Assembly: GCA_039714075.1 (NCBI GenBank)
Contig: JBDLKA010000115.1
Span: forward strand, 1-10,937
Direction: 5' to 3'
DNA: 10,937 nt
Source: Candidatus Krumholzibacteriota bacterium
Lineage (GTDB): Bacteria; Krumholzibacteriota; Krumholzibacteriia; LZORAL124-64-63
Shown here: in pieces, positions 1 through 10,937 of the stretch
Layout of the letters: every line of letters begins with the position of its first letter
Numbering within the stretch: position 1 is the first letter of the stretch
The notes under the pieces: generated by a model
What the model was told of the DNA's origin: nothing
The model's input: the letters and a program-made list of their open reading frames with translations, nothing else
Databases searched by the model: none
Program-made: the position numbers and the translations under genes

Positions 1-537
1 TGCGCCACCTGCGACGGGTTCTTTTTCAACGGACAGGAAATCGCCGTGGTCGGCGGCGGGGACACCGCCCTCGAGGAAGCCGTGTTCCTGACCAACTTCG
101 CTTCCAAGGTTACCCTGATCCACCGGCGGGATGAGCTGCGCGGCTCGAAGATCATGCAGGAGCGCGCATTGAACCATCCCAAGATCGAGATGGCCTGGAA
201 CAGCGTCATCGACAGCTACGTCCCCGATGAAAACGGTAACTTGGTGGCCCTCAAGCTGAAGGACACGCAGGACGGCTCGCTGCGGGATCTGCCGGTGACC
301 GGTTGCTTCATTGCCATCGGCCACACGCCCAACACGGCCTTCCTGGACAGCCAGCTGGACATGGACGACAACGGGTACCTGATCACCAAGGCCGACCGGA
401 CCGCCACCAACGTCGAGGGTGTGTTCGCCTGCGGCGACGTGCAGGACCACTACTACCGGCAGGCCATTACCTCTGCCGGTACCGGCTGTATGGCGGCCAT
501 CGAAGCTGAGCGGTGGTTGGGGGAGAAAGGGCTGTAG
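1..537 (+). CDS. trxB: Thioredoxin-disulfide reductase, 5'-truncated by the window edge
   Basis: Frame 1 from base 1 reads CATCDGFFFNGQEIAVVGGGDTALEEA (CxxC active site plus NADPH-binding GGGxxA), then HRRD, IGHTPNT and GVFACGDVQDHYYRQAITSAGTGC. Stop TAG at 535-537. Confidence 0.97.
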   Translation, partial: CATCDGFFFNGQEIAVVGGGDTALEEAVFLTNFASKVTLIHRRDELRGSKIMQERALNHPKIEMAWNSVIDSYVPDENGNLVALKLKDTQDGSLRDLPVTGCFIAIGHTPNTAFLDSQLDMDDNGYLITKADRTATNVEGVFACGDVQDHYYRQAITSAGTGCMAAIEAERWLGEKGL

Positions 538-650
538 GTCCGCCGGGCATATAGGGACCGCACACACAAGGACCTCCTTCCCGCTTAGGTTTCACATGCG
601 CGGGAAGGAGGTCCTTGTGTGTGCGGTCCCTATATGTCAGGGGGATCTAC
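534..650 (+). repeat. Long hairpin element, copy 1 (GTAG...CTAC, 117 nt)
   Basis: Perfect 37-bp inverted repeat 548-584 / 600-636 around the 15-nt loop TTAGGTTTCACATGC (585-599). Outer imperfect inverted repeat TGTAGGTCC / GGATCTACA. Confidence 0.95.
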
Positions 651-721
651 AACCATCCCCCAGCCACCTTGCAAGGTAGTGCTGACCCGGGTTCGGCAAG
701 CGGGGGGCGGAGCGGGGTGGA

Positions 722-750
722 TTGACATGATTTTGTTGGGGTGCAAAAAT
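722..750 (+). promoter_or_regulatory. Possible sigma70 promoter of the sulfatase-like gene
   Basis: Consensus TTGACA at 722-727, 17-nt spacer ending TGC, then AAAAAT at 745-750 (imperfect -10), about 40 nt before ATG 793. Confidence 0.35.
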
Positions 751-792
751 ACACGGCAAAGCCATTGCCCCGAAACTTGGGAAAACGATTCA

Positions 793-2142
793 ATGCCAAT
801 CCGGTTGTTGCTTGCTGTTCTGTTCCTTAGCCTGGTCACCGGTTGCGATCGGCAGCCGGACTCCCGGCCGATGAACCTGATCATCGTACTGGTTGACACC
901 CTGCGCGCCGACCATCTTCACTACCACGGCTATCCTCGCGATACTTCGCCCCGGATCGATCAATTTGCCGCGAACTCCCAGGTTTTCCTGAGTCACCAGG
1001 CCTCTTCTTCACGAACGGGCCCGTCGGTGGCCAGCATCTTCACCGGATTGTTTCCCCGCAGCCACGGTGTCATCAATCCGCTGACCAGCTTCGACGCCAA
1101 AGGCGTGCTAAACAAAGACCAGACCACCATGGCGGAAATCCTGTCCGCGCAGGGGTACGAGTGTTTTGGATACACCGCCAACCTGAACGCCTCCGGACGG
1201 TTCGGATTCGCCCAGGGTTTCAGGGAATACCAGCTGTTGATTACCGGCAGTGCCACCGATATCCGGCGGCGGGCGGTCAAGGTGCTCGGCGAATCCCGCG
1301 ACCGGCCCTTTTTCCTTTACCTTCACTTCATGGAACCGCACAGCCCCTACCACGCCCCCGCGGGTTACGATTCCCTTTTCGTTGATCCCGAATATGGCGG
1401 TCTTATCACCGGCCGGCACCGGCAGCTCGACAAGATCGTGGTCGGCAAATTGAAGGTCGACGACGCCGATGTGGCGCAGATGGAGGCCCTCTACGATCAG
1501 GAAATACGCTACATGGACGATGAGTTCGGTTTTCTGGTCGACTTCCTGGCCGAGCAGGGCTTAGGAGACAATACGCTAGTGGTGTTCATTGCCGACCATG
1601 GCGAGGAATTTCTGGAGCACGGTTCCGCCCTGCACGGCTACACCTTGTACCAGGAGCAGCTTCACGTTCCGTTCATCATTCATGACCCTAGCCGGCCGAC
1701 TGGGCAACGCCTCGATTCGGTCACCCGCCACGTCGACGTGCTACCGACTTTGCTGGAGATGCTCCATATCAATTACGACCAGTCGGGGCAGGGCCAGAGC
1801 CTTGTGCCCCTGCTTGATGGCCGTGACAGCGGCGAGGAAGAGGTCGATGTCCTTGCCGAGGTCAGCTTGATGGCCATCAAAACAGTACGCCAGCGGTCAC
1901 TGACGGTGGGCGACTGGAAGCTTATCGAGGGAATCATCCCCAAGGAGACGGTGGAGCTTTACGACCTGCGCCAGGACCCGGGCGAGCAGCAAAATCTTGC
2001 TGCAATAGACTCCGCCAAAACGGAAGAACTGCGCACCCGACTAGCCGACCTGCTCGCTTCCCTGCCTGCGGCCAAGGGCACGACCACCATACTCAGCGAA
2101 AAAGAGATCCAAAAGCTACGTTCCCTTGGTTATGTGAGATAG
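793..2142 (+). CDS. Sulfatase-like (alkaline phosphatase superfamily) hydrolase, predicted lipoprotein
   Basis: ATG 793 gives MPIRLLLAVLFLSLVTG-C (signal peptide plus lipobox). Motifs VLVDTLRADHL, RTGPSVASIFTG, PFFLYLHFMEPHSPY, ADHGEEFLEHG..HG, ELYDL..DPGE and C-terminal LRSLGY. The ORF is open from 619, but 793 is preferred because of the signal peptide. Confidence 0.88.
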   Translation: MPIRLLLAVLFLSLVTGCDRQPDSRPMNLIIVLVDTLRADHLHYHGYPRDTSPRIDQFAANSQVFLSHQASSSRTGPSVASIFTGLFPRSHGVINPLTSFDAKGVLNKDQTTMAEILSAQGYECFGYTANLNASGRFGFAQGFREYQLLITGSATDIRRRAVKVLGESRDRPFFLYLHFMEPHSPYHAPAGYDSLFVDPEYGGLITGRHRQLDKIVVGKLKVDDADVAQMEALYDQEIRYMDDEFGFLVDFLAEQGLGDNTLVVFIADHGEEFLEHGSALHGYTLYQEQLHVPFIIHDPSRPTGQRLDSVTRHVDVLPTLLEMLHINYDQSGQGQSLVPLLDGRDSGEEEVDVLAEVSLMAIKTVRQRSLTVGDWKLIEGIIPKETVELYDLRQDPGEQQNLAAIDSAKTEELRTRLADLLASLPAAKGTTTILSEKEIQKLRSLGYVR

Positions 2143-2155
2143 GCGGCAAAGGGCT

Positions 2156-2272
2156 GTAGGTCCGCCGGGCAGAAAGATCCCCTCAACACATCGACCCGCC
2201 TCCCGCTTAGGTTTCACATGCGCTGGAGGCGGGTCGATGTGTTGAGGGGATCTTCCCGTCCGGGGGAGCTAC
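2156..2272 (+). repeat. Long hairpin element, copy 2 (GTAG...CTAC, 117 nt)
   Basis: Perfect 30-bp inverted repeat 2174-2203 / 2225-2254, one mismatch, 2 more bp, then the same loop TTAGGTTTCACATGC (2207-2221). The 24-nt left flank 2148-2171 is identical to 526-549. Confidence 0.95.
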
Positions 2273-2273
2273 A

Positions 2274-2305
2274 CCCCCCACTTTTCAAGGGGGGGGTTCT
2301 GTCTT
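2274..2305 (+). terminator. Possible weak intrinsic terminator
   Basis: C6 (2274-2279) can pair with the G-run 2289-2296 and is followed by TTCTGTCTT. Lies between the convergent sulfatase and folE genes. Confidence 0.3.
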
Positions 2306-2324
2306 GGTTTCGGTAATCGGTGGT

Positions 2325-2419
2325 GCAGGAGCGGGGAGCCCGGCCACATGTGGGACCCAGTGGCGCATGTGAAACCTAAGCCAATGGGTCCCACATGTGG
2401 CCGGGCTCCCCGCTCCTAC
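2325..2419 (-). repeat. Long hairpin element, copy 3 (inverted, 95 nt)
   Basis: Perfect 33-bp inverted repeat 2327-2359 / 2385-2417, one mismatch, 4 more bp. Loop GCATGTGAAACCTAA (2365-2379) is the exact reverse complement of the loop in copies 1 and 2. Ends TGCAG...CTACA. Confidence 0.95.
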
Positions 2420-2420
2420 A

Positions 2421-2969
2421 TCAGGGCTTCTCCCGAATCAACGTCAGGAATTCCCCGCGAGTTTTGGGGTCGTTTTTGAAGCACCCGAGCATTTCACTGG
2501 TCACCGCATAACTGTTCTGCTTCTGGATGCCGCGCATCATCATGCACAGGTGCTGGGCGTGCAGAACGACGGCCACGCCGAGAGGCTCGAGATTTTCCAT
2601 GAGGCAGGTGGCGATCTGGGCGGTCATTCGTTCCTGAACCTGTAGCCGGCGGGCATAGGTATCCACCACCCGGGCAATCTTGGAGAGGCCGACGATCTTG
2701 CCGTTGGGAATGTAGGCCACGTGCGCCTTGCCGAAGAACGGCAGCATGTGATGCTCGCAGACACTGAAAAAATCGATGTCGTTGACCAGGATCATCTCTT
2801 TGCCCTCGGCTTCGAACACCGCGCTGCGCACCATGGCGCCCGGGTTCTTGCCGTATCCGTTGGCGATTTCCTTCCAGGCCTTGGCCACCCGTTCGGGTGT
2901 CTTGACCAGACCCTCGCGTTCGGGGTCTTCACCGATCTTGACCAACATTTCCCGTACCAGCTTGTCCAT
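2421..2969 (-). CDS. folE: GTP cyclohydrolase I
   Basis: [53 protein letters not shown] and HLCMMMRG (Zn ligands). ATG at 2969 is preceded by a GGAGGAG RBS. Confidence 0.97.
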
Positions 2970-3376: not shown

Positions 3377-3416
3377 TTCGTCCAGCTTTGGTCCCGCCCC
3401 AGACAAGGAGCCTGCC

Positions 3417-4283
3417 GTGGGAAACAAAATAGTGTACGTCAAGGAGCTAGCTCCCCTCACCAAACTTTTCGAAGTTGAGGCCCCGCACATTGCCGAACGC
3501 GGCAAGGCCGGGCAGTTCATCATTCTTCGGGTGAACGACGAGGGGGAACGCATTCCGCTGACCATCGCCAACCGCAACCCTGAAAAGGGAACCATCACCC
3601 TGGTCTTCCAGGAAGTCGGTAAGACAACGGAGATGCTGGGACTGATGGACGTGGGCGACGAGATCCACGACCTGGCCGGTCCCCTGGGCAAGGCCACGGA
3701 TATTCCCGAGGGCAAGACCGTGGTCTGTGTCGGCGGCGGCATCGGCAACGCGGTGGTCTGGCCCCAGGTCCAGGCACTCAAGGCGGCGGGCAACCGGGTG
3801 GTCGCCATCCTCGGCGCGCGCACGAAGGATCTCCTCATTCTCGAGGAAGAAGTCACCGCCCTGGCCGACCTGACCATCGTCACCACCGACGACGGCAGCT
3901 ACGGCCGCAAGGGTATGGTCACCCACGCCCTGGTCGATCTGATCGACGAGGGCGAAACGATCGACGAAGTCATCACCATCGGTCCGGTGGTCATGATGAA
4001 GTTCGTCTGCAAGACCACCGAACCGTTCGGCATTCCGACCCAGGCCTCACTCAACCCGCTGATGGTCGACGGCACCGGCATGTGCGGCGCCTGCCGGGTG
4101 ACGGTGGACGGCAAGACCAGGTTCGCCTGCGTCGAGGGCCCCGAGTTCAACGGCCACCAGGTCGATTTCGACGAGTTGATCACCCGCCTGGCCTACTACC
4201 AGCCGGAAGAACGTTCGTCGTTGGAAGATTACCACCGCTGCCGCATGGAAGAAGCGGCCGACAACCTGCCCAGCAACCAGTAA
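3417..4283 (+). CDS. nfnA: NfnA/SudB-type FAD/NAD-binding [2Fe-2S] subunit of NADH-dependent ferredoxin:NADP+ oxidoreductase
   Basis: AAGGAG RBS then GTG 3417. Motifs GQFIILR..GERIPLTI, GPLG, VGGGIG, TDDGSYG.KG, IGPVVMM and DGTGMCGACRV...ACVEGPEF (Asp/Cys3 2Fe-2S motif). Directly upstream of the large subunit. Confidence 0.88.
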   Translation: MGNKIVYVKELAPLTKLFEVEAPHIAERGKAGQFIILRVNDEGERIPLTIANRNPEKGTITLVFQEVGKTTEMLGLMDVGDEIHDLAGPLGKATDIPEGKTVVCVGGGIGNAVVWPQVQALKAAGNRVVAILGARTKDLLILEEEVTALADLTIVTTDDGSYGRKGMVTHALVDLIDEGETIDEVITIGPVVMMKFVCKTTEPFGIPTQASLNPLMVDGTGMCGACRVTVDGKTRFACVEGPEFNGHQVDFDELITRLAYYQPEERSSLEDYHRCRMEEAADNLPSNQ

Positions 4284-4295
4284 AGGAGGACCGGC

Positions 4296-5780
4296 ATGAA
4301 CGACACACCGAAAAAACCGAAGAAGGTCCTCAACAAGGCGAAGACCAAGACCCCCATGCGGGAACAGGCCCCCATGGACCGGATCATGAACTTCGAAGAG
4401 GTGCCCCTGGGCTACAACGAGGTCGAAGCCCAGCAGGAAGCCCTGCGTTGCATCGACTGCAAGAACAAGCCCTGCATTGAAGGATGCCCGGTGGGCATCG
4501 ACATCCCCGCCTTCCTGAACCTGGTGGGCCAGAAGGATTTCGAGGGCGCCCTGAAGAAGATCAAGGAAAAGAACTTCCTGCCCGCCATCTGCGGCCGCGT
4601 CTGTCCCCAGGAAGACCAGTGCGAGATGGTCTGCACGCTCAACAAGCCCGACAAGGGCCGCGAGCCCGGCGGCGTCGGACGCGTGGAGCGCTTCCTCGGC
4701 GACTACGCCGTGGAGCACAATCTGGACATCATGCCGGACATCGCGGCGAAGACGGGCAAGACCGTGGCTATCATCGGCTCCGGCCCCGCCGGCCTGACCG
4801 CGGCCAGCGACATGATCCAGAAGGGTCACGACGTCACCGTATTCGAGGCGCTGCACAAACCGGGCGGCGTGCTGTTCTACGGCATCCCCCAGTTCCGGCT
4901 GCCCAAGGAGATCCTCCTGCGGGAGGTCAGCGGCCTGGAGAAGATGGGCGTGAAGTTCGTCATGAACTATCCCGTGGGCAAAGCCGAGAGTCTGGACAGC
5001 GTCCGCGATAGGTTCGATGTGGTTTTCATCGCCACCGGCGCGGGGCTGCCCTGGTTCCTGGGTATCCCCGGGGAGAACCTCAACGGCGTCTACAGCGCGA
5101 ACGAGTTCCTGACGCGCGTGAACCTGATGGGCGGATACAAATTCCCCAACGGTTCGGACACGCCGGTCAAGAAGATCAAGCGCATCGCCGTCATCGGCGC
5201 GGGCAACACGGCCATGGACAGCGCCCGGACGGCCAAGAGGCTGCAGCCGGAGGTCGTGTACCTGGTGTACCGCCGCAGCCGGCTGGAGATGCCCGCGCGG
5301 ATCGAGGAGATCCACCACGCCGAAGAGGAAGGCATCGATTTCAACCTGCTGCATTCCCCCATCGAGATCATCGATGACGGGAAGGGCGCCGTGGGCGCCA
5401 TCCTCTGCCAGGAGATGGAACTGGGCGAGCCCGACGACAGCGGGCGCCGCCGCCCCGTGCCCATCGAGGGCAAGGTGCGCGAGTTCGCGGTCGACACGGT
5501 GGTCATCGCCATCGGGCAGGGCCCGAATCCCCTGCTTTCGGCGGACTGTCCCGAGTTGGAACGGAACGAGCGGAAGGGCACGATCGTCATCAACGACGTC
5601 ATGCAGACGAGCTTCGAGAACGTCTTTGCCGGCGGCGACATCGTCACCGGCGGGGCGACGGTCATCCTGGCCATGGGCCAGGGCCGGGTCGCGGCCGACG
5701 CCATGCATCGGTACCTGATGACCGGAAATCCGCAGGATACGGAAGGCGACCAAAGCGAGGTTTGCCCAAACCTGACCTGA
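4296..5780 (+). CDS. nfnB: NfnB/SudA-type (GltD-like) NADPH-dependent FAD, 2x[4Fe-4S] subunit
   Basis: AGGAGG RBS. Motifs RCIDCKNKPCIEGCP, CGRVCPQEDQCEMVC, IIGSGPAGL, YGIPQFRLP, VIGAGNTAMD, VYRRS and FAGGDIVTGGATVILAMGQG. Paired with nfnA and no gltB nearby. Confidence 0.88.
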   Translation: MNDTPKKPKKVLNKAKTKTPMREQAPMDRIMNFEEVPLGYNEVEAQQEALRCIDCKNKPCIEGCPVGIDIPAFLNLVGQKDFEGALKKIKEKNFLPAICGRVCPQEDQCEMVCTLNKPDKGREPGGVGRVERFLGDYAVEHNLDIMPDIAAKTGKTVAIIGSGPAGLTAASDMIQKGHDVTVFEALHKPGGVLFYGIPQFRLPKEILLREVSGLEKMGVKFVMNYPVGKAESLDSVRDRFDVVFIATGAGLPWFLGIPGENLNGVYSANEFLTRVNLMGGYKFPNGSDTPVKKIKRIAVIGAGNTAMDSARTAKRLQPEVVYLVYRRSRLEMPARIEEIHHAEEEGIDFNLLHSPIEIIDDGKGAVGAILCQEMELGEPDDSGRRRPVPIEGKVREFAVDTVVIAIGQGPNPLLSADCPELERNERKGTIVINDVMQTSFENVFAGGDIVTGGATVILAMGQGRVAADAMHRYLMTGNPQDTEGDQSEVCPNLT

Positions 5781-5835
5781 TTCCGTATATAGAAGATATG
5801 ATTCCAGTCGGACCTGCATTCCGGCGGGGATTGAT

Positions 5836-5876
5836 CACCTCCCGAGGTTTCGACCCTGGGAGGTGTTCGCTTTTTT
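5836..5876 (+). terminator. Intrinsic terminator after nfnAB
   Basis: Stem CACCTCCC (5836-5843) / GGGAGGTG (5858-5865) with an inner GGT-TTCG-ACC hairpin, followed by TTCGCTTTTTT. Confidence 0.7.
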
Positions 5877-5887
5877 GGGGGGAGACC

Positions 5888-5909
5888 TCAGGTCAGGTCA
5901 GGTCAGGTC
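5888..5909. repeat. Pentanucleotide tandem repeat (TCAGG)4TC spanning the purN stop codon
   Basis: TCAGGTCAGGTCAGGTCAGGTC read directly from the sequence. Confidence 0.85.
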
Positions 5910-6491
5910 GGCCGCCAGCCGGGACAGGACGCGGGGATACAACTCGCATTCGGCAGCGAACACCCGGGCGGCCAGGGTGGCCACGTCATCGCCGGGCAGA
6001 ACCGGGACCTCTTGTTGACCGAGGATGCGGCCGGTGTCGTACTGGTCGTCCACCAGGTGGACCGTGCACCCGGTCACGGGATCTCCCGCCGCCAGCACCG
6101 CCTGATGAACCCGGTCGCCGTAGAACCCCTTACCCCCGTATTTGGGCAACAGGGCCGGGTGGATGTTGACCACCGGGCCGTTGAACCAACCCGCCTGGAT
6201 GTAGAAACAGAGATATCCGGCCAGGATGATGATCCTGGGGCCATGCGGTTCGAGCCAGGCGTTGATCGCGGTGTTGTGCTGGGCGATGGAGGGATAGTCA
6301 CGGCGGCGAAAAATCCCGCAGGAAAGACCGTGGTCGCGGGCGATGTCCACCCCGCGCACGTCCGACCGGCTGGAAACGACCGCGGTCACCTCCAGGTCCA
6401 GTTCACCGGCCGCCCGCTTGGCCAGCAGGTTTTCCAGGGTCCGGCCGCTGCCGGACAGCAGCACCGCGGCCTTCACGCTGTTGCTTTCCAT
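5898..6491 (-). CDS. purN: Phosphoribosylglycinamide formyltransferase
   Basis: AVLLSGSGRTL, ILAGY, NIHPALLPKYGGKG.YG..VH and TGCTVHLVD..YDTG. ATG 6491 has GGAG upstream (alternative start 6518). Confidence 0.93.
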   Translation of the reverse strand: MESNSVKAAVLLSGSGRTLENLLAKRAAGELDLEVTAVVSSRSDVRGVDIARDHGLSCGIFRRRDYPSIAQHNTAINAWLEPHGPRIIILAGYLCFYIQAGWFNGPVVNIHPALLPKYGGKGFYGDRVHQAVLAAGDPVTGCTVHLVDDQYDTGRILGQQEVPVLPGDDVATLAARVFAAECELYPRVLSRLAADLT

Positions 6492-6505
6492 TCCACTCTC
6501 CGTAT

Positions 6506-7024
6506 TCAGGAGTCCCATTCCTCTGCCAATCGGGCCAGGACTCTTCGGTGGGCGGCAAAAGCGACCGGGCCGGGCACTTCCCCACTTCCGAAAAAGCCCA
6601 CGTCCGCGGCATCGTCGCCGGCCTGCAGCTTGCCCCCGATTTCCTCGGCCCGGTAAAAGACAACCAGAACGGGAATGTCGGGCGGCAGGATGCCGGATTC
6701 GACGGCATACAGTTCCGTCAATCGCACCTCGAGCCCCGTCTCCTCGAGGGCTTCCCGCCGGGCGGTCAGCTGGACATCCTCATCCCATTCCATGAAGCCG
6801 GTGGGAAAGGACCACTGCCCCTCCTTGGGGGGAAATTTCCGTTTTACCAGGCAGACTTTCCGGTCGCGAACCACGACCACACCGGCGCCCGGCGCGGGGT
6901 TGAGGTACTGCACGAAACCACAGTCGGGACAGGCCGGCCGCGCGAGCCCGCCTTCGGGCCGGAGGATCATGTCGGCCCGGCAGTGCGGACAAAACTTGAA
7001 GACATGGCGGTTGGACGGATTCAT
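6506..7024 (-). CDS. Nudix hydrolase with N-terminal zinc ribbon
   Basis: FKFCPHC...CPDCGFVQYLNP, and Nudix box GFMEWDEDVQLTARREALEETGL. ATGA overlap with the lnt stop. Confidence 0.92.
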   Translation of the reverse strand: MNPSNRHVFKFCPHCRADMILRPEGGLARPACPDCGFVQYLNPAPGAGVVVVRDRKVCLVKRKFPPKEGQWSFPTGFMEWDEDVQLTARREALEETGLEVRLTELYAVESGILPPDIPVLVVFYRAEEIGGKLQAGDDAADVGFFGSGEVPGPVAFAAHRRVLARLAEEWDS

Positions 7025-8631
7025 GATACCCCGTCCCTAGCCGGCGGCGCCGCCTTGCGTCCCCATATGATCGCAAAAACCGACCACACGATCAGAAGCC
7101 CGAACAGGGGCCAGGCGCCGAACGCCACATATGGAGTCCGCCCCGCTCCCGGGTGGATGGCGGCCCGCGCGATGCCCTTTTGTCCCAGCTCGAGCCAGGC
7201 GAGCTTGTTCCCGTCAGCGTCGCAGATGAAACTGATCCCGTTGTTGGCGCAGCGAATGACCGGCACCCCGCATTCGACGCCCCGCATGCGGGCCATCCAG
7301 GTGTGCTGCCGGGGGCCGGCCGATTTGCCGAACCAGCCGTCGTTGGTGATCACCACCAGGCACTGGCTGCCGCGGCGGACAGAGTACCTGGCCAGGTGGG
7401 AGAAGATGGATTCGAAACAGACCATCCCGGAAAAACGGAAGCTCCCCCGCTCGGTTTTCATGGTCATGGGCTGGGGCGGTTCCCCGGGGGTCCATTCGGC
7501 CTGGCCGACGTCCAGTTTCGCCAGGAAGGGGAACAGCCAGGTGAAGGGCATCGATTCACCAATGGGCAGCAGATGGTACTTGGCGTAATTGTCCACGATC
7601 TTGCCCCGGGGACTCAACAGGCCGGAGGAATTGAAGGTCCTCACTTTCCCGTCGGGATCGCGGTCGGCATCCGGGAACCCCGCATAGAGCCAGATCCCGG
7701 TATCGGTCACCAGTTTGCGGATCCACTCCAGCAGATCCTTGTCATAGCGCAGATAGGCGGGCACGGCCGTTTCCGCCCAGACCACGAATTCGGCATCATC
7801 ATCGGCAGCTTGGCGTGTCAACTTGTCGTAGGGTTTCTGGGTGGCGTCGATCTTGTCGTCCACCCACTTCACCGCTAAAGCGACATCGGCCTGGACGGCG
7901 GCCGCCTCCACGACATCCATGGTGTCGGGAGAAGCCGCGGGTCCGGAGAGGTTCACCCGGGAACCTGCCAGCAGACCAATCCAAATCAACCCGCAGGCAA
8001 CCAGGAGGGCATTTCGGTAGCTAGCGGCCGCAAGCAGCCCGCGCCTGGTTGCCCAGACGGCCGTAAACGCCGCAGCCAGAAAAGCGATGCCCCCACCGAC
8101 TCCGATTTCGCCGCTGGTCTTGGCGAGGAACAACAGGGGCGACCCGATGACGGCCGCACCACTCAGGCACCAGGAAAAGGCAAGTTCACCACGGGACCGC
8201 AGGGCCTCCATGCCCACCCACAAGACAGGCAGTAGCATGAGACCGGTTCCGGACCCCAGCCGATCCTTCAGCTTGCCGAACACCCAGCCCAGGACCAGGT
8301 AAAAACACGAAACGTAGAGAATGGCCGCCCCCGCCTGGATGGGCACTAGGGCGCGGGTCGGAATGGTTTTTGAAGGATCCAGCAGGAACAGCCAGTGCAG
8401 CAGGGCGGCCTGATGCGCCAGGCCGAATAACCAGGCCGCACGGCCCGGCCGCGCCGAGGTCAGCATGACACCGAACAGGAGAGCCATTCCCAGGGGAACC
8501 AAAAGGCCCGTCCACTGGTACGGAGGCAGCCCGGCGGTGACCAGCAAGCCGGCGAAAAGAGCCAGGTTGGTGGACAGGCCCGGCCGGCCCACCCGCAACC
8601 GGGGGCCCTGTTGTTCCATGGTGTCATTCAT
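7021..8631 (-). CDS. lnt: Apolipoprotein N-acyltransferase
   Basis: Multi-TM N-terminus (W...E.LRS.G..FSW) and a nitrilase-fold E-K-C triad: WAETA, YAKYHLLPIGESMP, VCFESIF, plus ITNDGWFG and RCANNGIS. Start uncertain (8640/8631/8619). Confidence 0.93.
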   Translation of the reverse strand: MNDTMEQQGPRLRVGRPGLSTNLALFAGLLVTAGLPPYQWTGLLVPLGMALLFGVMLTSARPGRAAWLFGLAHQAALLHWLFLLDPSKTIPTRALVPIQAGAAILYVSCFYLVLGWVFGKLKDRLGSGTGLMLLPVLWVGMEALRSRGELAFSWCLSGAAVIGSPLLFLAKTSGEIGVGGGIAFLAAAFTAVWATRRGLLAAASYRNALLVACGLIWIGLLAGSRVNLSGPAASPDTMDVVEAAAVQADVALAVKWVDDKIDATQKPYDKLTRQAADDDAEFVVWAETAVPAYLRYDKDLLEWIRKLVTDTGIWLYAGFPDADRDPDGKVRTFNSSGLLSPRGKIVDNYAKYHLLPIGESMPFTWLFPFLAKLDVGQAEWTPGEPPQPMTMKTERGSFRFSGMVCFESIFSHLARYSVRRGSQCLVVITNDGWFGKSAGPRQHTWMARMRGVECGVPVIRCANNGISFICDADGNKLAWLELGQKGIARAAIHPGAGRTPYVAFGAWPLFGLLIVWSVFAIIWGRKAAPPARDGVS

Positions 8632-8699
8632 GACCGGCAAAATACCTGACCGGCCGGATGGTGTCCAGTGGCGGGACAGTCAATTTGTCCGGCCCCGGC

Positions 8700-10211
8700 T
8701 CAGGTTTCCGCTGAAGCGATCAGATCCGACATCCCGTACCGCTGAATCTTCTTGTAGAGCCCCTGCCGCGAAAGCCCCAGCCTCCTGGCCGCCGAAGCCT
8801 TGCGTCCTTCAGTGGCCGCGATGGCCTTGCGGATCAAGTAACGCTCGAGTATCTCCTGCGCCTGACCCAGTTCGCGCAGCGTGCCCAGATCGGCCACGTC
8901 CACGCGGCCCGTGCGGGCGGTCTGGATGTCCTGGGACAAACTGCCAAGGGTGATGATATCGGCCTGGGGATACAGAGCCAGGAACCGCTGCACTTCGTTC
9001 TCCAATTCCCTTACGTTTCCCGGCCAGCGCCAAGCCTGCAGACACGCAATAGCTTTTTCTGTAATTGTATATTTTTCAAATTCTTTGCCACTTTTCTTAA
9101 GAAAATAGGAAAACAACGGCAGAACATCCTCCGGCCGGTTTCTCAGCGGCGGGATTTCCAGAGCCACCACCTTGAGGCGGTAATAGAGATCCAGCCGGAA
9201 CCGACCCGCGGCGATTTCGGCGGGAAGCTCTTTGTGACTGGCGGCAAGGAAACGGATATCAACCGGACGGGATTGCAGTTCCCCTATCCGGCGCACGCTT
9301 CGTTCCTGCATCACGCGCAACAATTTGATCTGGAGTTCCATGGGCATGTCGCCGATTTCATCCAGGAAAAAAGTCCCCCCGTGGGCCGCGGCCAGCAGAC
9401 CCTTCTTTTCACCGCTGGCCCCGGTGAAGGCGCCGGCCCGGTGCCCGAACAGTTCGCTTTCAAAGAGGGACGCCGGCAGGGCGGCGCAATTCTGACCCAC
9501 GAACTCGCCCTTCGCCCGTTCGCTGCATTGGTGCAGGGCCTGGGCGATGACCTCCTTCCCCGTACCGCTCTCCCCCTTCAAGAGAACATTGACACCGCTT
9601 CTGGCGATATCAGGAATCCTCTTGCCGAGTTCGTTCATTTCCCGGCTGCAGCCGATGCAGCCGGGGATTCCGGACACGGACACCGGACGCGGCATGGGCA
9701 GGCAATTCTTTTTGGCGCCAGTCCTGGATTTGGAACCGGCCCGGATCCGGGAACGGCCGAATTCCGGGTGGGGAAACAGGCAGCCCTGAGCCGGCGTAGC
9801 CGACGGGAACGATTTTTCATAGTGAGGTTCCAGCTGCATGAGCACGGGACCCAGCCTTGCCGCCAGTCTTTGTCCCCACAGGAAGATGGATTCCCGCCAG
9901 GGCTGTTCGGCCTGGAACCAGATGGCCAGACAGCCCCTCACCTGGCCTCTGTCTGCAAGCGGCTCCACCCACAGGGCGGTGTCGGCCGATTGGAAGGCCA
10001 GTTCCTCTCTGCGTTCCAGCATGGCTTTAAGCAGGGCGCCCAAGGGTGGGCGTTGGTCCAGACCCTGGGACCGTCCCCGGCCGGTGGCCCAGGAGAACAG
10101 GATGTTCAAGGGCGAGGTCAGGTCCGAGCCGTCGCGGCGGACAACCCAAACGGCCGCTCCGGTGCCCCCGTGGGGATAACTTCTGATTTCCTCCTGCCAG
10201 AATTTCCTCAT
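8700..10211 (-). CDS. Sigma54-dependent transcriptional activator (bEBP, AAA+ plus Fis-type HTH)
   Basis: GESGTGKE, ESELFGH..GAFTGA, GTFFLDEIG, FRLDLYYRL, WPGNVREL and C-terminal AARRLGLSRQGLYKK. ATG 10211 has GGGAGG upstream and lies downstream of the predicted promoter. Confidence 0.93.
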   Translation of the reverse strand: MRKFWQEEIRSYPHGGTGAAVWVVRRDGSDLTSPLNILFSWATGRGRSQGLDQRPPLGALLKAMLERREELAFQSADTALWVEPLADRGQVRGCLAIWFQAEQPWRESIFLWGQRLAARLGPVLMQLEPHYEKSFPSATPAQGCLFPHPEFGRSRIRAGSKSRTGAKKNCLPMPRPVSVSGIPGCIGCSREMNELGKRIPDIARSGVNVLLKGESGTGKEVIAQALHQCSERAKGEFVGQNCAALPASLFESELFGHRAGAFTGASGEKKGLLAAAHGGTFFLDEIGDMPMELQIKLLRVMQERSVRRIGELQSRPVDIRFLAASHKELPAEIAAGRFRLDLYYRLKVVALEIPPLRNRPEDVLPLFSYFLKKSGKEFEKYTITEKAIACLQAWRWPGNVRELENEVQRFLALYPQADIITLGSLSQDIQTARTGRVDVADLGTLRELGQAQEILERYLIRKAIAATEGRKASAARRLGLSRQGLYKKIQRYGMSDLIASAET

Positions 10212-10255
10212 GCAATGAAACCCTCCCGTTGAATTGAACAGTACGGGATACCCAT

Positions 10256-10271
10256 TGCAGGAGAAGTGCCA
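10256..10271 (-). promoter_or_regulatory. Sigma54 (-24/-12) promoter
   Basis: Minus strand TGGCACTTCTCCTGCA: exact GG-N10-GC spacing, one mismatch to TGGCAC-N5-TTGCW, about 45 nt upstream of ATG 10211. Confidence 0.7.
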
Positions 10272-10446
10272 CTCAAGAAAGAGGGACACGAACCTGTGGC
10301 GCTTTGCCAGGCAACGACAGCAAACCCTTGTCCGGCAGACGGATAAATATGCTCCGGATCCAGCGGTCAGCCACCTCTTAGGGAACATGTGTCCCAGTCC
10401 TGTCCCGGGCCGACGTCACCCTCATACCCTCATCGGGACATGTCCC

Positions 10447-10476
10447 AAAAAAAAGCCGGCGGAGAACCGCCGGCTT
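10447..10476 (-). terminator. Intrinsic terminator after purM
   Basis: Minus strand AAGCCGGCGG-TTCT-CCGCCGGC-TTTTTTTT, about 22 nt after the purM stop. Confidence 0.92.
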
Positions 10477-10498
10477 GATCAATCCGTGCAGGGTCATT

Positions 10499-10937
10499 TC
10501 AAAAAGGCATCCGCACCTTTTCCGCACCTTCGCTGACGGTGCCGATTTCCCTGACCTCAAGGCCCTCGATGCGGGTCAAATCGGTTTCCGGCCCCGTGAC
10601 CACCACCATTCCGATCCCCATGTTGAAGACCCGGTACATCTCGCTGTCGGCCACGCCGCCCTTGTCGGCGATCAGTTGGAAGATGGGCAGAGGCGTCCAG
10701 GCAGTCGGATCGACCTCAACGCACAGGCCGTCCGGCACCACACGGGGAATGTTGTCGTAGAATCCGCCCCCGGTGATGTGGACCAGACCGTGGACGGACG
10801 GGCGGCCAGCCGCGGCCCAGATGGCGCGCAGATCGTTCAGGTAGCTGCGGTGGACCGCCAGCAGGGCGTCGGCCACCGAATCCCCGCCCAGGACCTCGGG
10901 CCTGTCGTCGACGCCGAAACCCGCCTTTTCCAGCAGG
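10499..10937 (-). CDS. purM: Phosphoribosylformylglycinamidine cyclo-ligase (AIR synthetase), C-terminal part, truncated by the window edge
   Basis: GLVHITGGGFYDNIPRVVP and EMYRVFNMGIGMV. The frame stays open to the window end. Stop TGA at 10499-10501. Confidence 0.94.
   Translation of the reverse strand, partial: LLEKAGFGVDDRPEVLGGDSVADALLAVHRSYLNDLRAIWAAAGRPSVHGLVHITGGGFYDNIPRVVPDGLCVEVDPTAWTPLPIFQLIADKGGVADSEMYRVFNMGIGMVVVTGPETDLTRIEGLEVREIGTVSEGAEKVRMPF

Follow-up and report, generated by a model that had tools for sequence, protein, structure and literature searches.

Gene-end hairpins with a conserved tip and locus-specific arms in a Krumholzibacteriota genome

Introduction

REPs and REPINs are described as extragenic, multi-copy, palindromic elements of ~100-130 bp that are long-lived and vertically kept (PMC3733652, 10.1101/2021.07.10.451892). 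In the sections of these works drawn on here, GTAG REPs often provide the TAG stop of the flanking open reading frame (ORF) (PMC3733652), and REPINs have a RAYT and a variable spacer set between conserved ends (10.1101/2021.07.10.451892, PMC3733652, PMC6006769, PMC3337134). The hairpins treated here were found in contig JBDLKA010000115.1 of a Candidatus Krumholzibacteriota assembly (GCA_039714075.1), a stretch of 10,937 nucleotides called the window, where three of them stand around the trxB-folE junction. Like REPs and REPINs, they are extragenic, multi-copy, palindromic and vertically persistent. Unlike in REPINs, the centre (the tip) is conserved and the arms are locus-specific; conserved REP ends are lacking, no RAYT (Y1 HUH) gene is flanked by hairpins, and copies number tens, not hundreds. 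The hairpins are REPIN-like in ecology and are not members of the REPINs. They form a real and apparently undescribed family, a variant of the dispersed palindromic elements with an unexplained tip.

In architecture, TwoAYGGAY (RF01731) is the nearest described relative. One tip family of the source genome (family C) matches it and, like the window hairpins, stands at gene ends with long arms specific to each copy; the tip of family B, to which the window hairpins belong, lacks AYGGAY loops. In the portion of the source cited, TwoAYGGAY is treated as RNA, divergent doublets are in excess (68.4%), copy number varies and the mechanism of mobility is left open (10.64898/2026.09.22.753630). Template switching at quasi-palindromes (Ripley model) has arm homogenisation and spacer inversion as outcome; in the parts cited it is described for short, tip-independent repeats, with arms <20 bp in Escherichia coli (PMC5941160, PMC8604942). 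It accounts for both outcomes in the present hairpins, but leaves unexplained the conserved tip, its fixed orientation and the presence of tips on nearly all long hairpins of the source genome. At ssiA of RSF1010-type plasmids, the phage G4 origin and the N4 promoters, the protein signal is single-stranded DNA (ssDNA) capped by a C(GNA)G mini-hairpin, according to the part of PMC13037366 used. The present tips, which would likewise be protein signals on folded ssDNA, mostly end in GNA triloops; they differ in being dispersed gene-end repeats with long self-copied arms, not single-copy plasmid or phage origin or promoter signals.

The hairpins represent a repeat family of inverted REPIN design, with no recognisable transposase and with comparative evidence of repeated DNA copying between arms at the ends of housekeeping genes.

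Hairpins and tip families

Three hairpins of the window share a 19-nt core (Table 1), as claimed by an earlier reading of the letters alone (the sequence-only reading). Three matches were reached in 0/200 shuffles of the window, which otherwise holds no match at <=3 mismatches. The arms are separated by a gap of 15 nt in every hairpin, and the folding z-scores range from -12 to -14.5, on either strand. Copies 1 and 2 are each 117 nt long with a loop offset of 51, as had been read. Their left arms differ at 14 positions, which agrees with the earlier count; Watson-Crick pairing is kept in both copies at 14/14 of these, not at 13.

The proposal of a real repeat family was confirmed in the source genome (G000, 4.06 Mb, 92% complete), where the 19-mer has 5 exact copies, all within long hairpins, and 0 copies with 1-3 mismatches. 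Scanning this genome for long inverted repeats yielded 57 hairpins, of which 50 overlap four tip families and 2 more a B-like element; long perfect arms thus go with a tip. The catalogue of this genome includes 29 A, 8 B, 10 C and 2 D elements. The core of family A is ATGTCCTC...CTGCGGATTA and that of family B is CTTAG...ATGCG. Families A, B and D look related, since CTYAG...ATKCG is common to B and D and A has CTCRG...CTGCG at the same place. Family C corresponds to TwoAYGGAY (7 Rfam RF01731 hits, 2 above gathering score).

The core, proposed to be invariant, is so within the window; elsewhere the exact 19-mer is found in 13/35 distinct armed B/D-type tips. Nor is the centre the fixed, unstructured 15-nt loop that had been envisaged. 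It is a small imperfect hairpin with a variable tip: CTYAG, a TTC loop (GAA on the other strand) closed by a covarying stem of 2-3 bp, and ATKCG. This triloop on its covarying stem is kept in 29/35 of the B/D-type tips. Arms at different loci are unrelated beyond a weak near-tip consensus. Derivation of the arms from spacers taken elsewhere in the genome was ruled out, as only local duplicates and chance 16-17-mers were found.

The sequence-only reading had recognised no named family. In agreement, positions 400-2600 of the window gave 25 sub-threshold Rfam hits, chiefly generic miRNA hairpins, 0 at gathering score and none to RF01731. No description of tips A, B or D was found in a literature whose coverage leaves out most subscription journals.

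Two side observations concern the source genome. B/D-type tips at C71:15310-15466, C116:4114-4286 and C209:716-896 enclose a complete terminator-like hairpin, with A/T runs in the loop. A separate, MITE-like small repeat (C26:1358-1523, C116:199-400, C32:33236-33395) has conserved 26-29 bp inverted ends and a 108-150 nt centre, a design opposite to that of the tip-bearing hairpins.

Evolution of the arms

For the comparison, 80 further A regions were taken, 8 at contig edges were excluded and, with the earlier loci, 169 distinct armed A/B elements were obtained. Counts across genomes include orthologous copies and are hence not independent. The inner zone of the arms (median 33 bp) is 98.7% Watson-Crick (3845/3895 pairs); the exceptions are 12 G.T, 29 A.C and 9 other mismatches. 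Beyond it lies an imperfect outer zone, often extending into the gene.

The arms diverge about as fast as four-fold sites (orthologue identity 0.61 vs 0.62; downstream flanks, 0.52; the 8 tip-adjacent bp, 0.80), which rules out hypermutable arms. They nevertheless stay matched: 860/941 differing inner-arm positions at orthologous sites are paired in both genomes. At the trxB site, two-sided changes affect 33/52 pairs, a value reached in 0/500 shuffles. Among elements pairing >=9 of the first 12 gene-end bases, to which this count is restricted, the right arm matches the gene end of its own genome at 96/142 differing positions.

The relatives' elements were mapped to the source genome, where, among those listed, 28 gene ends are occupied, 13 empty and 1 at an edge; 12 elements have no orthologue there. 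The tip itself is exchanged at some sites: a wzc-like gene end carries tip B or tip A, and an infB-like one TwoAYGGAY or tip A, depending on species. At the trxB-folE junction, both hairpins are present in G001, where the trxB tip is inverted; G002 lacks a hairpin and has 8 bp there; and G004 keeps the outer arms and has lost the tip and inner arms.

That the arms are re-copied from each other, which the sequence-only reading had suggested, and that this occurs at the DNA level, is well supported: near-neutral drift, an almost complete lack of G.U intermediates, inversion of the centre and central deletion are the products to be expected of template switching between arms (PMC5941160, PMC8604942). 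Comparison of orthologous loci shows symmetric re-copying, inversion and loss of the tip, fixed gene-end sites and tip exchange.

Gene ends

The tip lies 13-52 nt (5-95%; median 38) past a stop codon in the 169 elements. Among 130 unambiguous cases it has gene-sense orientation in 112 and is inverted in the other 18, a count that leaves out 26 tips between two near stops and 13 without assigned gene. The junctions of the A, B and D elements of the source genome are convergent (17) or tandem (15) and never divergent (0), against a background of 148/598/312 for gaps >=100 nt. The stop is TAG at 19/31 of the gene ends vs 28% in the background (p=1.5e-4). The neighbours of the 49 catalogued elements were judged by inspection to be ordinary genes, and most elements adjoin housekeeping genes without cargo.

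A DNA reading of the tip

The reading favoured here, at about even confidence, is that of a long-lived, non-autonomous and largely sedentary REPIN-like palindrome of inverted design, whose tip would be read as ssDNA by a trans-acting factor. The element has a conserved asymmetric tip and ~33 bp perfect arms directly behind the stop codon. As the comparison shows, its arms drift near-neutrally and are repeatedly re-copied as DNA, the gene-distal arm mirroring the current gene end, and occasional events invert or delete the tip. A trans-acting protein may recognise the folded antisense tip (GNA triloop, bulged G, G.A mismatch). At a nick or block in the antisense template at the tip, the growing sense strand would then be free to fold back on itself and use the gene-side arm as its template. 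Copying outward from the gene would be harmless, and a flipped tip would overwrite the gene end, which may account for the orientation bias. The family would have spread in the past in a REPIN-like manner, by insertion at stop codons with TAG favoured, and would now be mostly sedentary. Its retention may involve a side benefit as an mRNA 3' stem.

The appearance of the tip fits a structured ssDNA signal, as had been suggested: the loop of B/D tips reads GAA on the antisense strand and a GNA end is conserved in 29/35, and 117/150 family A tips have the form G-N-A on that strand, where N is A, C or T and the closing pair is mostly C-G. According to the part of the source cited, GNA mini-hairpins have exceptional stability as DNA, and priming and promoter signals on ssDNA contain them; the GAAA form melts at 76.5 as DNA vs 39.0 C for the sole RNA counterpart compared (PMC13037366). 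Among isolated inner mismatches, those that read G.T on the GNA strand number 38 vs 15, and this bias tracks tip orientation in 4/4 informative flipped cases; these strand ratios overstate the support, orthologous copies not being independent. The TwoAYGGAY motif strand is antisense to the abutting gene end in 8/9 of the relatives' loci.

Several results weigh against this reading. No element was seen to have freshly entered a clean empty site. Standing inner mismatches (8 left-derived, 8 right-derived) indicate no direction of copying. Nearest-neighbour folding does not prefer the antisense strand and cannot separate the strands. Some tip-stem variants are wobble-compatible on the sense strand only, outer-arm mismatches are G.U on the gene-sense strand in 66 cases vs 33 (25 vs 4 in the source genome), and a T-rich run (>=5 T in 8 nt, early right arm) is present in 53/138 A elements vs 8 in the control.

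The enzyme is also lacking among the candidates sought. Y1 HUH genes, searched by PF01797, which very divergent RAYTs could escape, are found in only 12/90 family genomes and are absent from the near-complete tip-bearing genomes G146 and G170. None of 31 loci has an armed tip near a Y1 or Y2 gene. Y2 (PF04986) has 0 matches in the source genome though it is common in the family, and 0/12 of its loci have an armed tip. Reverse transcriptase (PF00078) has 0 matches in the source genome at its 92% completeness, which separates the hairpins from retrons, DGRs and other reverse transcriptase-linked non-coding RNAs.

If the tip drives the copying, it would point to an ssDNA-hairpin-directed enzyme of a new kind and offer a possible explanation for the spread and divergent doublets of TwoAYGGAY, accessible in culturable Pseudomonas; an antisense orientation would produce the divergent-doublet excess. 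If the tip is passive, the family remains a clean natural record of long-arm template switching. A wider proposal is speculative and judged rather unlikely: a cross-phylum class of DNA elements whose ssDNA tip attracts an enzyme dedicated to this task, either of the host or domesticated, which places the element at stop codons and continually renews the inverted copy of the gene end behind it, with A, B, D and TwoAYGGAY as interchangeable signals of one system. TwoAYGGAY would then be a DNA signal rather than RNA.

A possible RNA 3'-end element

The main rival, tentative and somewhat doubtful, is an RNA 3'-end element. The transcribed hairpin would terminate, protect or process the mRNA, its tip would be a protein-binding loop, and the arms would be matched by ordinary enzyme-free template switching and selection. 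The short distance from stop to tip, the gene-sense orientation, the absence of divergent junctions and the keeping of sites across genera are all consistent with it, as are the G.U excess of the outer arms, the T-rich runs of family A and the three B/D-like tips that contain a terminator-like hairpin. Other features do not fit. The T-rich run is found in only 2/18 family B elements, so that, with the 53/138 in family A, a U-rich tract does not characterise these hairpins as it does intrinsic terminators; the terminator scan was limited to loops of 3-8 and is hence no fair test of them. G.U is rare in the inner stem (12/3895), A.C being commoner, and it is the non-transcribed-sense strand that bears the stable triloop. 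At the trxB site, an inverted tip, a lost tip and the loss of the whole hairpin are all tolerated.

The trxB-folE junction and possible gene capture

Integron attC sites fold as single strands and have a terminal hairpin that varies, together with a zone left unpaired and one bulged base, and the hairpin tips resemble them in all these respects. An attC-like recombination site that captures gene cassettes at gene ends would be consistent with several loci, and is nonetheless improbable.

In the window, two copies of the trxB-end hairpin enclose a sulfatase gene, lineage-specific cargo in a unit of 1622 bp; the gene is absent from this junction in G001, G002, G004, G007 and the locus L243. The outer left arm of hairpin 1 begins within trxB and is built from its last codons and the TAG stop, and copy 3 begins at the folE stop. 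Copy 2 comes after the sulfatase gene, yet opens with an exact 24-nt duplicate of the trxB end (its 3' end + 12 nt). Because hairpin 2 is closest to the trxB hairpins of relatives, it is probably the resident copy, and hairpin 1 with the sulfatase the newcomer. Hairpin 3 has orthologues with different arms in G001, G007 and L243. Two contig-only DNA sequencing runs cover the sulfatase unit at flank-like depth; the tip inversion is not resolvable from them. A similar gene-hairpin-cargo-hairpin layout is found in G019. L243 carries a different cargo between the same two hairpins, a 162-aa gene (L243 2614-3102); similar DNA is found at the G004 junction.

As gene capture at the tip would have it, two half elements are broken there, one in G004 (guaB) and one in G133. 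At the guaB end of G004 (L119), foreign DNA comes directly after the left arm and the initial bases of tip B; a search for the right arm returned the left arm only. In G133 (L053 640-720), the right half of a tip A and its right arm stand alone. The source genome also encodes an IntI-like integrase (C87; L018 1144-3600), followed by low-GC cassette-like ORFs.

Against capture at the tip, the duplication involves the gene end, which lies upstream of the tip. A second duplication, at glmS (C2:31506-36132, L371), consists of glmS, a 677-aa cargo gene, a displaced and diverged glmS 3' end and a TwoAYGGAY-type hairpin. The hairpin is on the displaced copy only; the incoming glmS copy without hairpin fits ordinary integration of the island type at gene ends, and the locus is an island-type duplication at a known integration hotspot gene. 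Because the duplicated DNA is the gene end and the glmS hairpin stands only on the displaced copy, the cargo units are read as gene-end integrations beside the element and not as recombination at the tip, a reading to which the two half elements are contrary. By inspection, the tips also lack the RYYYAAC...GTTRRRY boxes of attC. The IntI locus has attC-like sites of its own, with no array of the hairpins beside the integrase and no A-D hairpin catalogued on C87, and most elements lie beside housekeeping genes without cargo. Neither this integrase nor the two tyrosine recombinases on C1 of the source genome show a link to the hairpins.

Distribution and a proposed mobility

The sequence-only reading had proposed a mobile hairpin whose loop is cut by an HUH enzyme, as in RAYT-like systems or rolling-circle origins. 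As a currently mobile element this is very improbable. It would agree with a conserved tip on a variable stem, and with the patchy distribution of tip A, found in 29/208 phylum genomes and confined to one family. GTAG is present at 11/31 gene ends of the source genome vs 416/3483 in the background (12%); the bases concerned are the stop codon of the host gene and stand tens of bases away from the tip. An armed B-type tip also lies 37 nt behind an mltB-like gene (named from sequence alone) on an apparently unrelated metagenome contig (L271), a hint that B-type tips may range wider than this phylum.

No gene of an HUH/Y1 nuclease, IS91-type Y2 transposase or reverse transcriptase is linked to the hairpins, which, as far as Y1 and Y2 initiators are concerned, sets them apart from rolling-circle origins and IS91 elements. 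A regular expression for the HUH motif, applied to the ORFs of the source genome, picked out three unrelated proteins besides the two Y1 genes; the HUH families searched by profile were Y1 and Y2, with plasmid Rep and relaxases outside this search. The two Y1 HUH genes are on contigs of 1.1-1.3 kb (C247 and C256; L014, L015), that of C256 having terminal inverted repeats, and these contigs are possibly contamination of the bin. Different loci have no common arms, and the same orthologous gene ends are occupied across the genus and beyond, which speaks against current mobility. Viral contigs contain no armed copy (A, 0/29 matches; B, 0 and 0/1 matches).

At <=1 mismatch, the 19-mer is found in 4/7 genus mates and in 0/53 other relatives; a second genus (G149, G151) has variant B tips at its trxB end. 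The scan of genome contigs gave 20 loci, 6 armed (7 matches) and 14 unarmed, and that of metagenomes 36 loci, two of which overlap, with 17 matches that are armed. When the 208 phylum genomes were scanned with a loose B pattern, chance matches dominated, 3 being armed among 51 loci checked. Nothing was found in another class, in a sample of 10 genomes too small to carry meaning. At L047/L206 (G170 C2), L357 (G133 C145) and L053, tip A is duplicated in tandem at a spacing of 90-222 bp, with only one of the arms present.

That the inverted copies are an assembly or library artefact is scarcely credible: k-mer contigs do break at hairpins and single tips could be mis-assembled in orientation, but many independent assemblies show the same sites with different, internally matched arms, the covariation at the trxB site exceeds all shuffles, derived states are common to both copies in the imperfect outer zones, and two inverted-tip loci (L072, L069) are on contigs tagged k127 and k141, values exceeding arm length.

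Features of the window

Table 1. Hairpins, repeats and genes around the trxB-folE junction
Feature	Position	Strand	Evidence or remark
3' part of trxB (thioredoxin reductase)	1..537	+	ORF; Pfam Pyr_redox_2 E=7.6e-24
24-nt direct repeat, copy 1 (trxB end + 12 nt)	526..549	+	Sequence repeat
Hairpin 1, family B	530..654	+	Arms 530-584/600-654; 36 perfect tip-side pairs, imperfect outer zone into trxB
Tip of hairpin 1	583..601	+	Opposite strand GCGCAT-GT-GAA-AC-CTAAGC, a GAA triloop mini-hairpin
Sigma-70-like promoter match upstream of sulfatase	722..750	+	10/12 positions; ~1 expected by chance
Sulfatase gene	793..2142	+	Pfam Sulfatase E=3.7e-49; GC3 0.73 vs trxB 0.88
24-nt direct repeat, copy 2 (displaced trxB-end duplicate)	2148..2171	+	
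Hairpin 2, family B	2151..2277	+	Arms 2151-2206/2222-2277; arm nearest to relatives' trxB-end hairpins
Tip of hairpin 2	2205..2223	+	
Hairpin 3, family B, belongs to folE 3' end	2321..2423	-	Arms 2321-2364/2380-2423
Tip of hairpin 3	2363..2381	-	
folE (GTP cyclohydrolase I)	2421..2969	-	ORF; Pfam GTP_cyclohydroI E=7.3e-78; TGA stop is the foot of hairpin 3

The features are sorted by position in the window. Tip, the 19-nt core. GC3, GC content at third codon positions.

The region 3402-10936 holds what are presumably ordinary genes: an NfnAB/gltD-like pair, purN, a Nudix gene, lnt, a sigma-54 activator and purM. Between hairpins 2 and 3, a small C-run/G-run hairpin followed by a T-rich stretch (2274-2296) is a candidate ordinary terminator of the junction, and G001 has the same.

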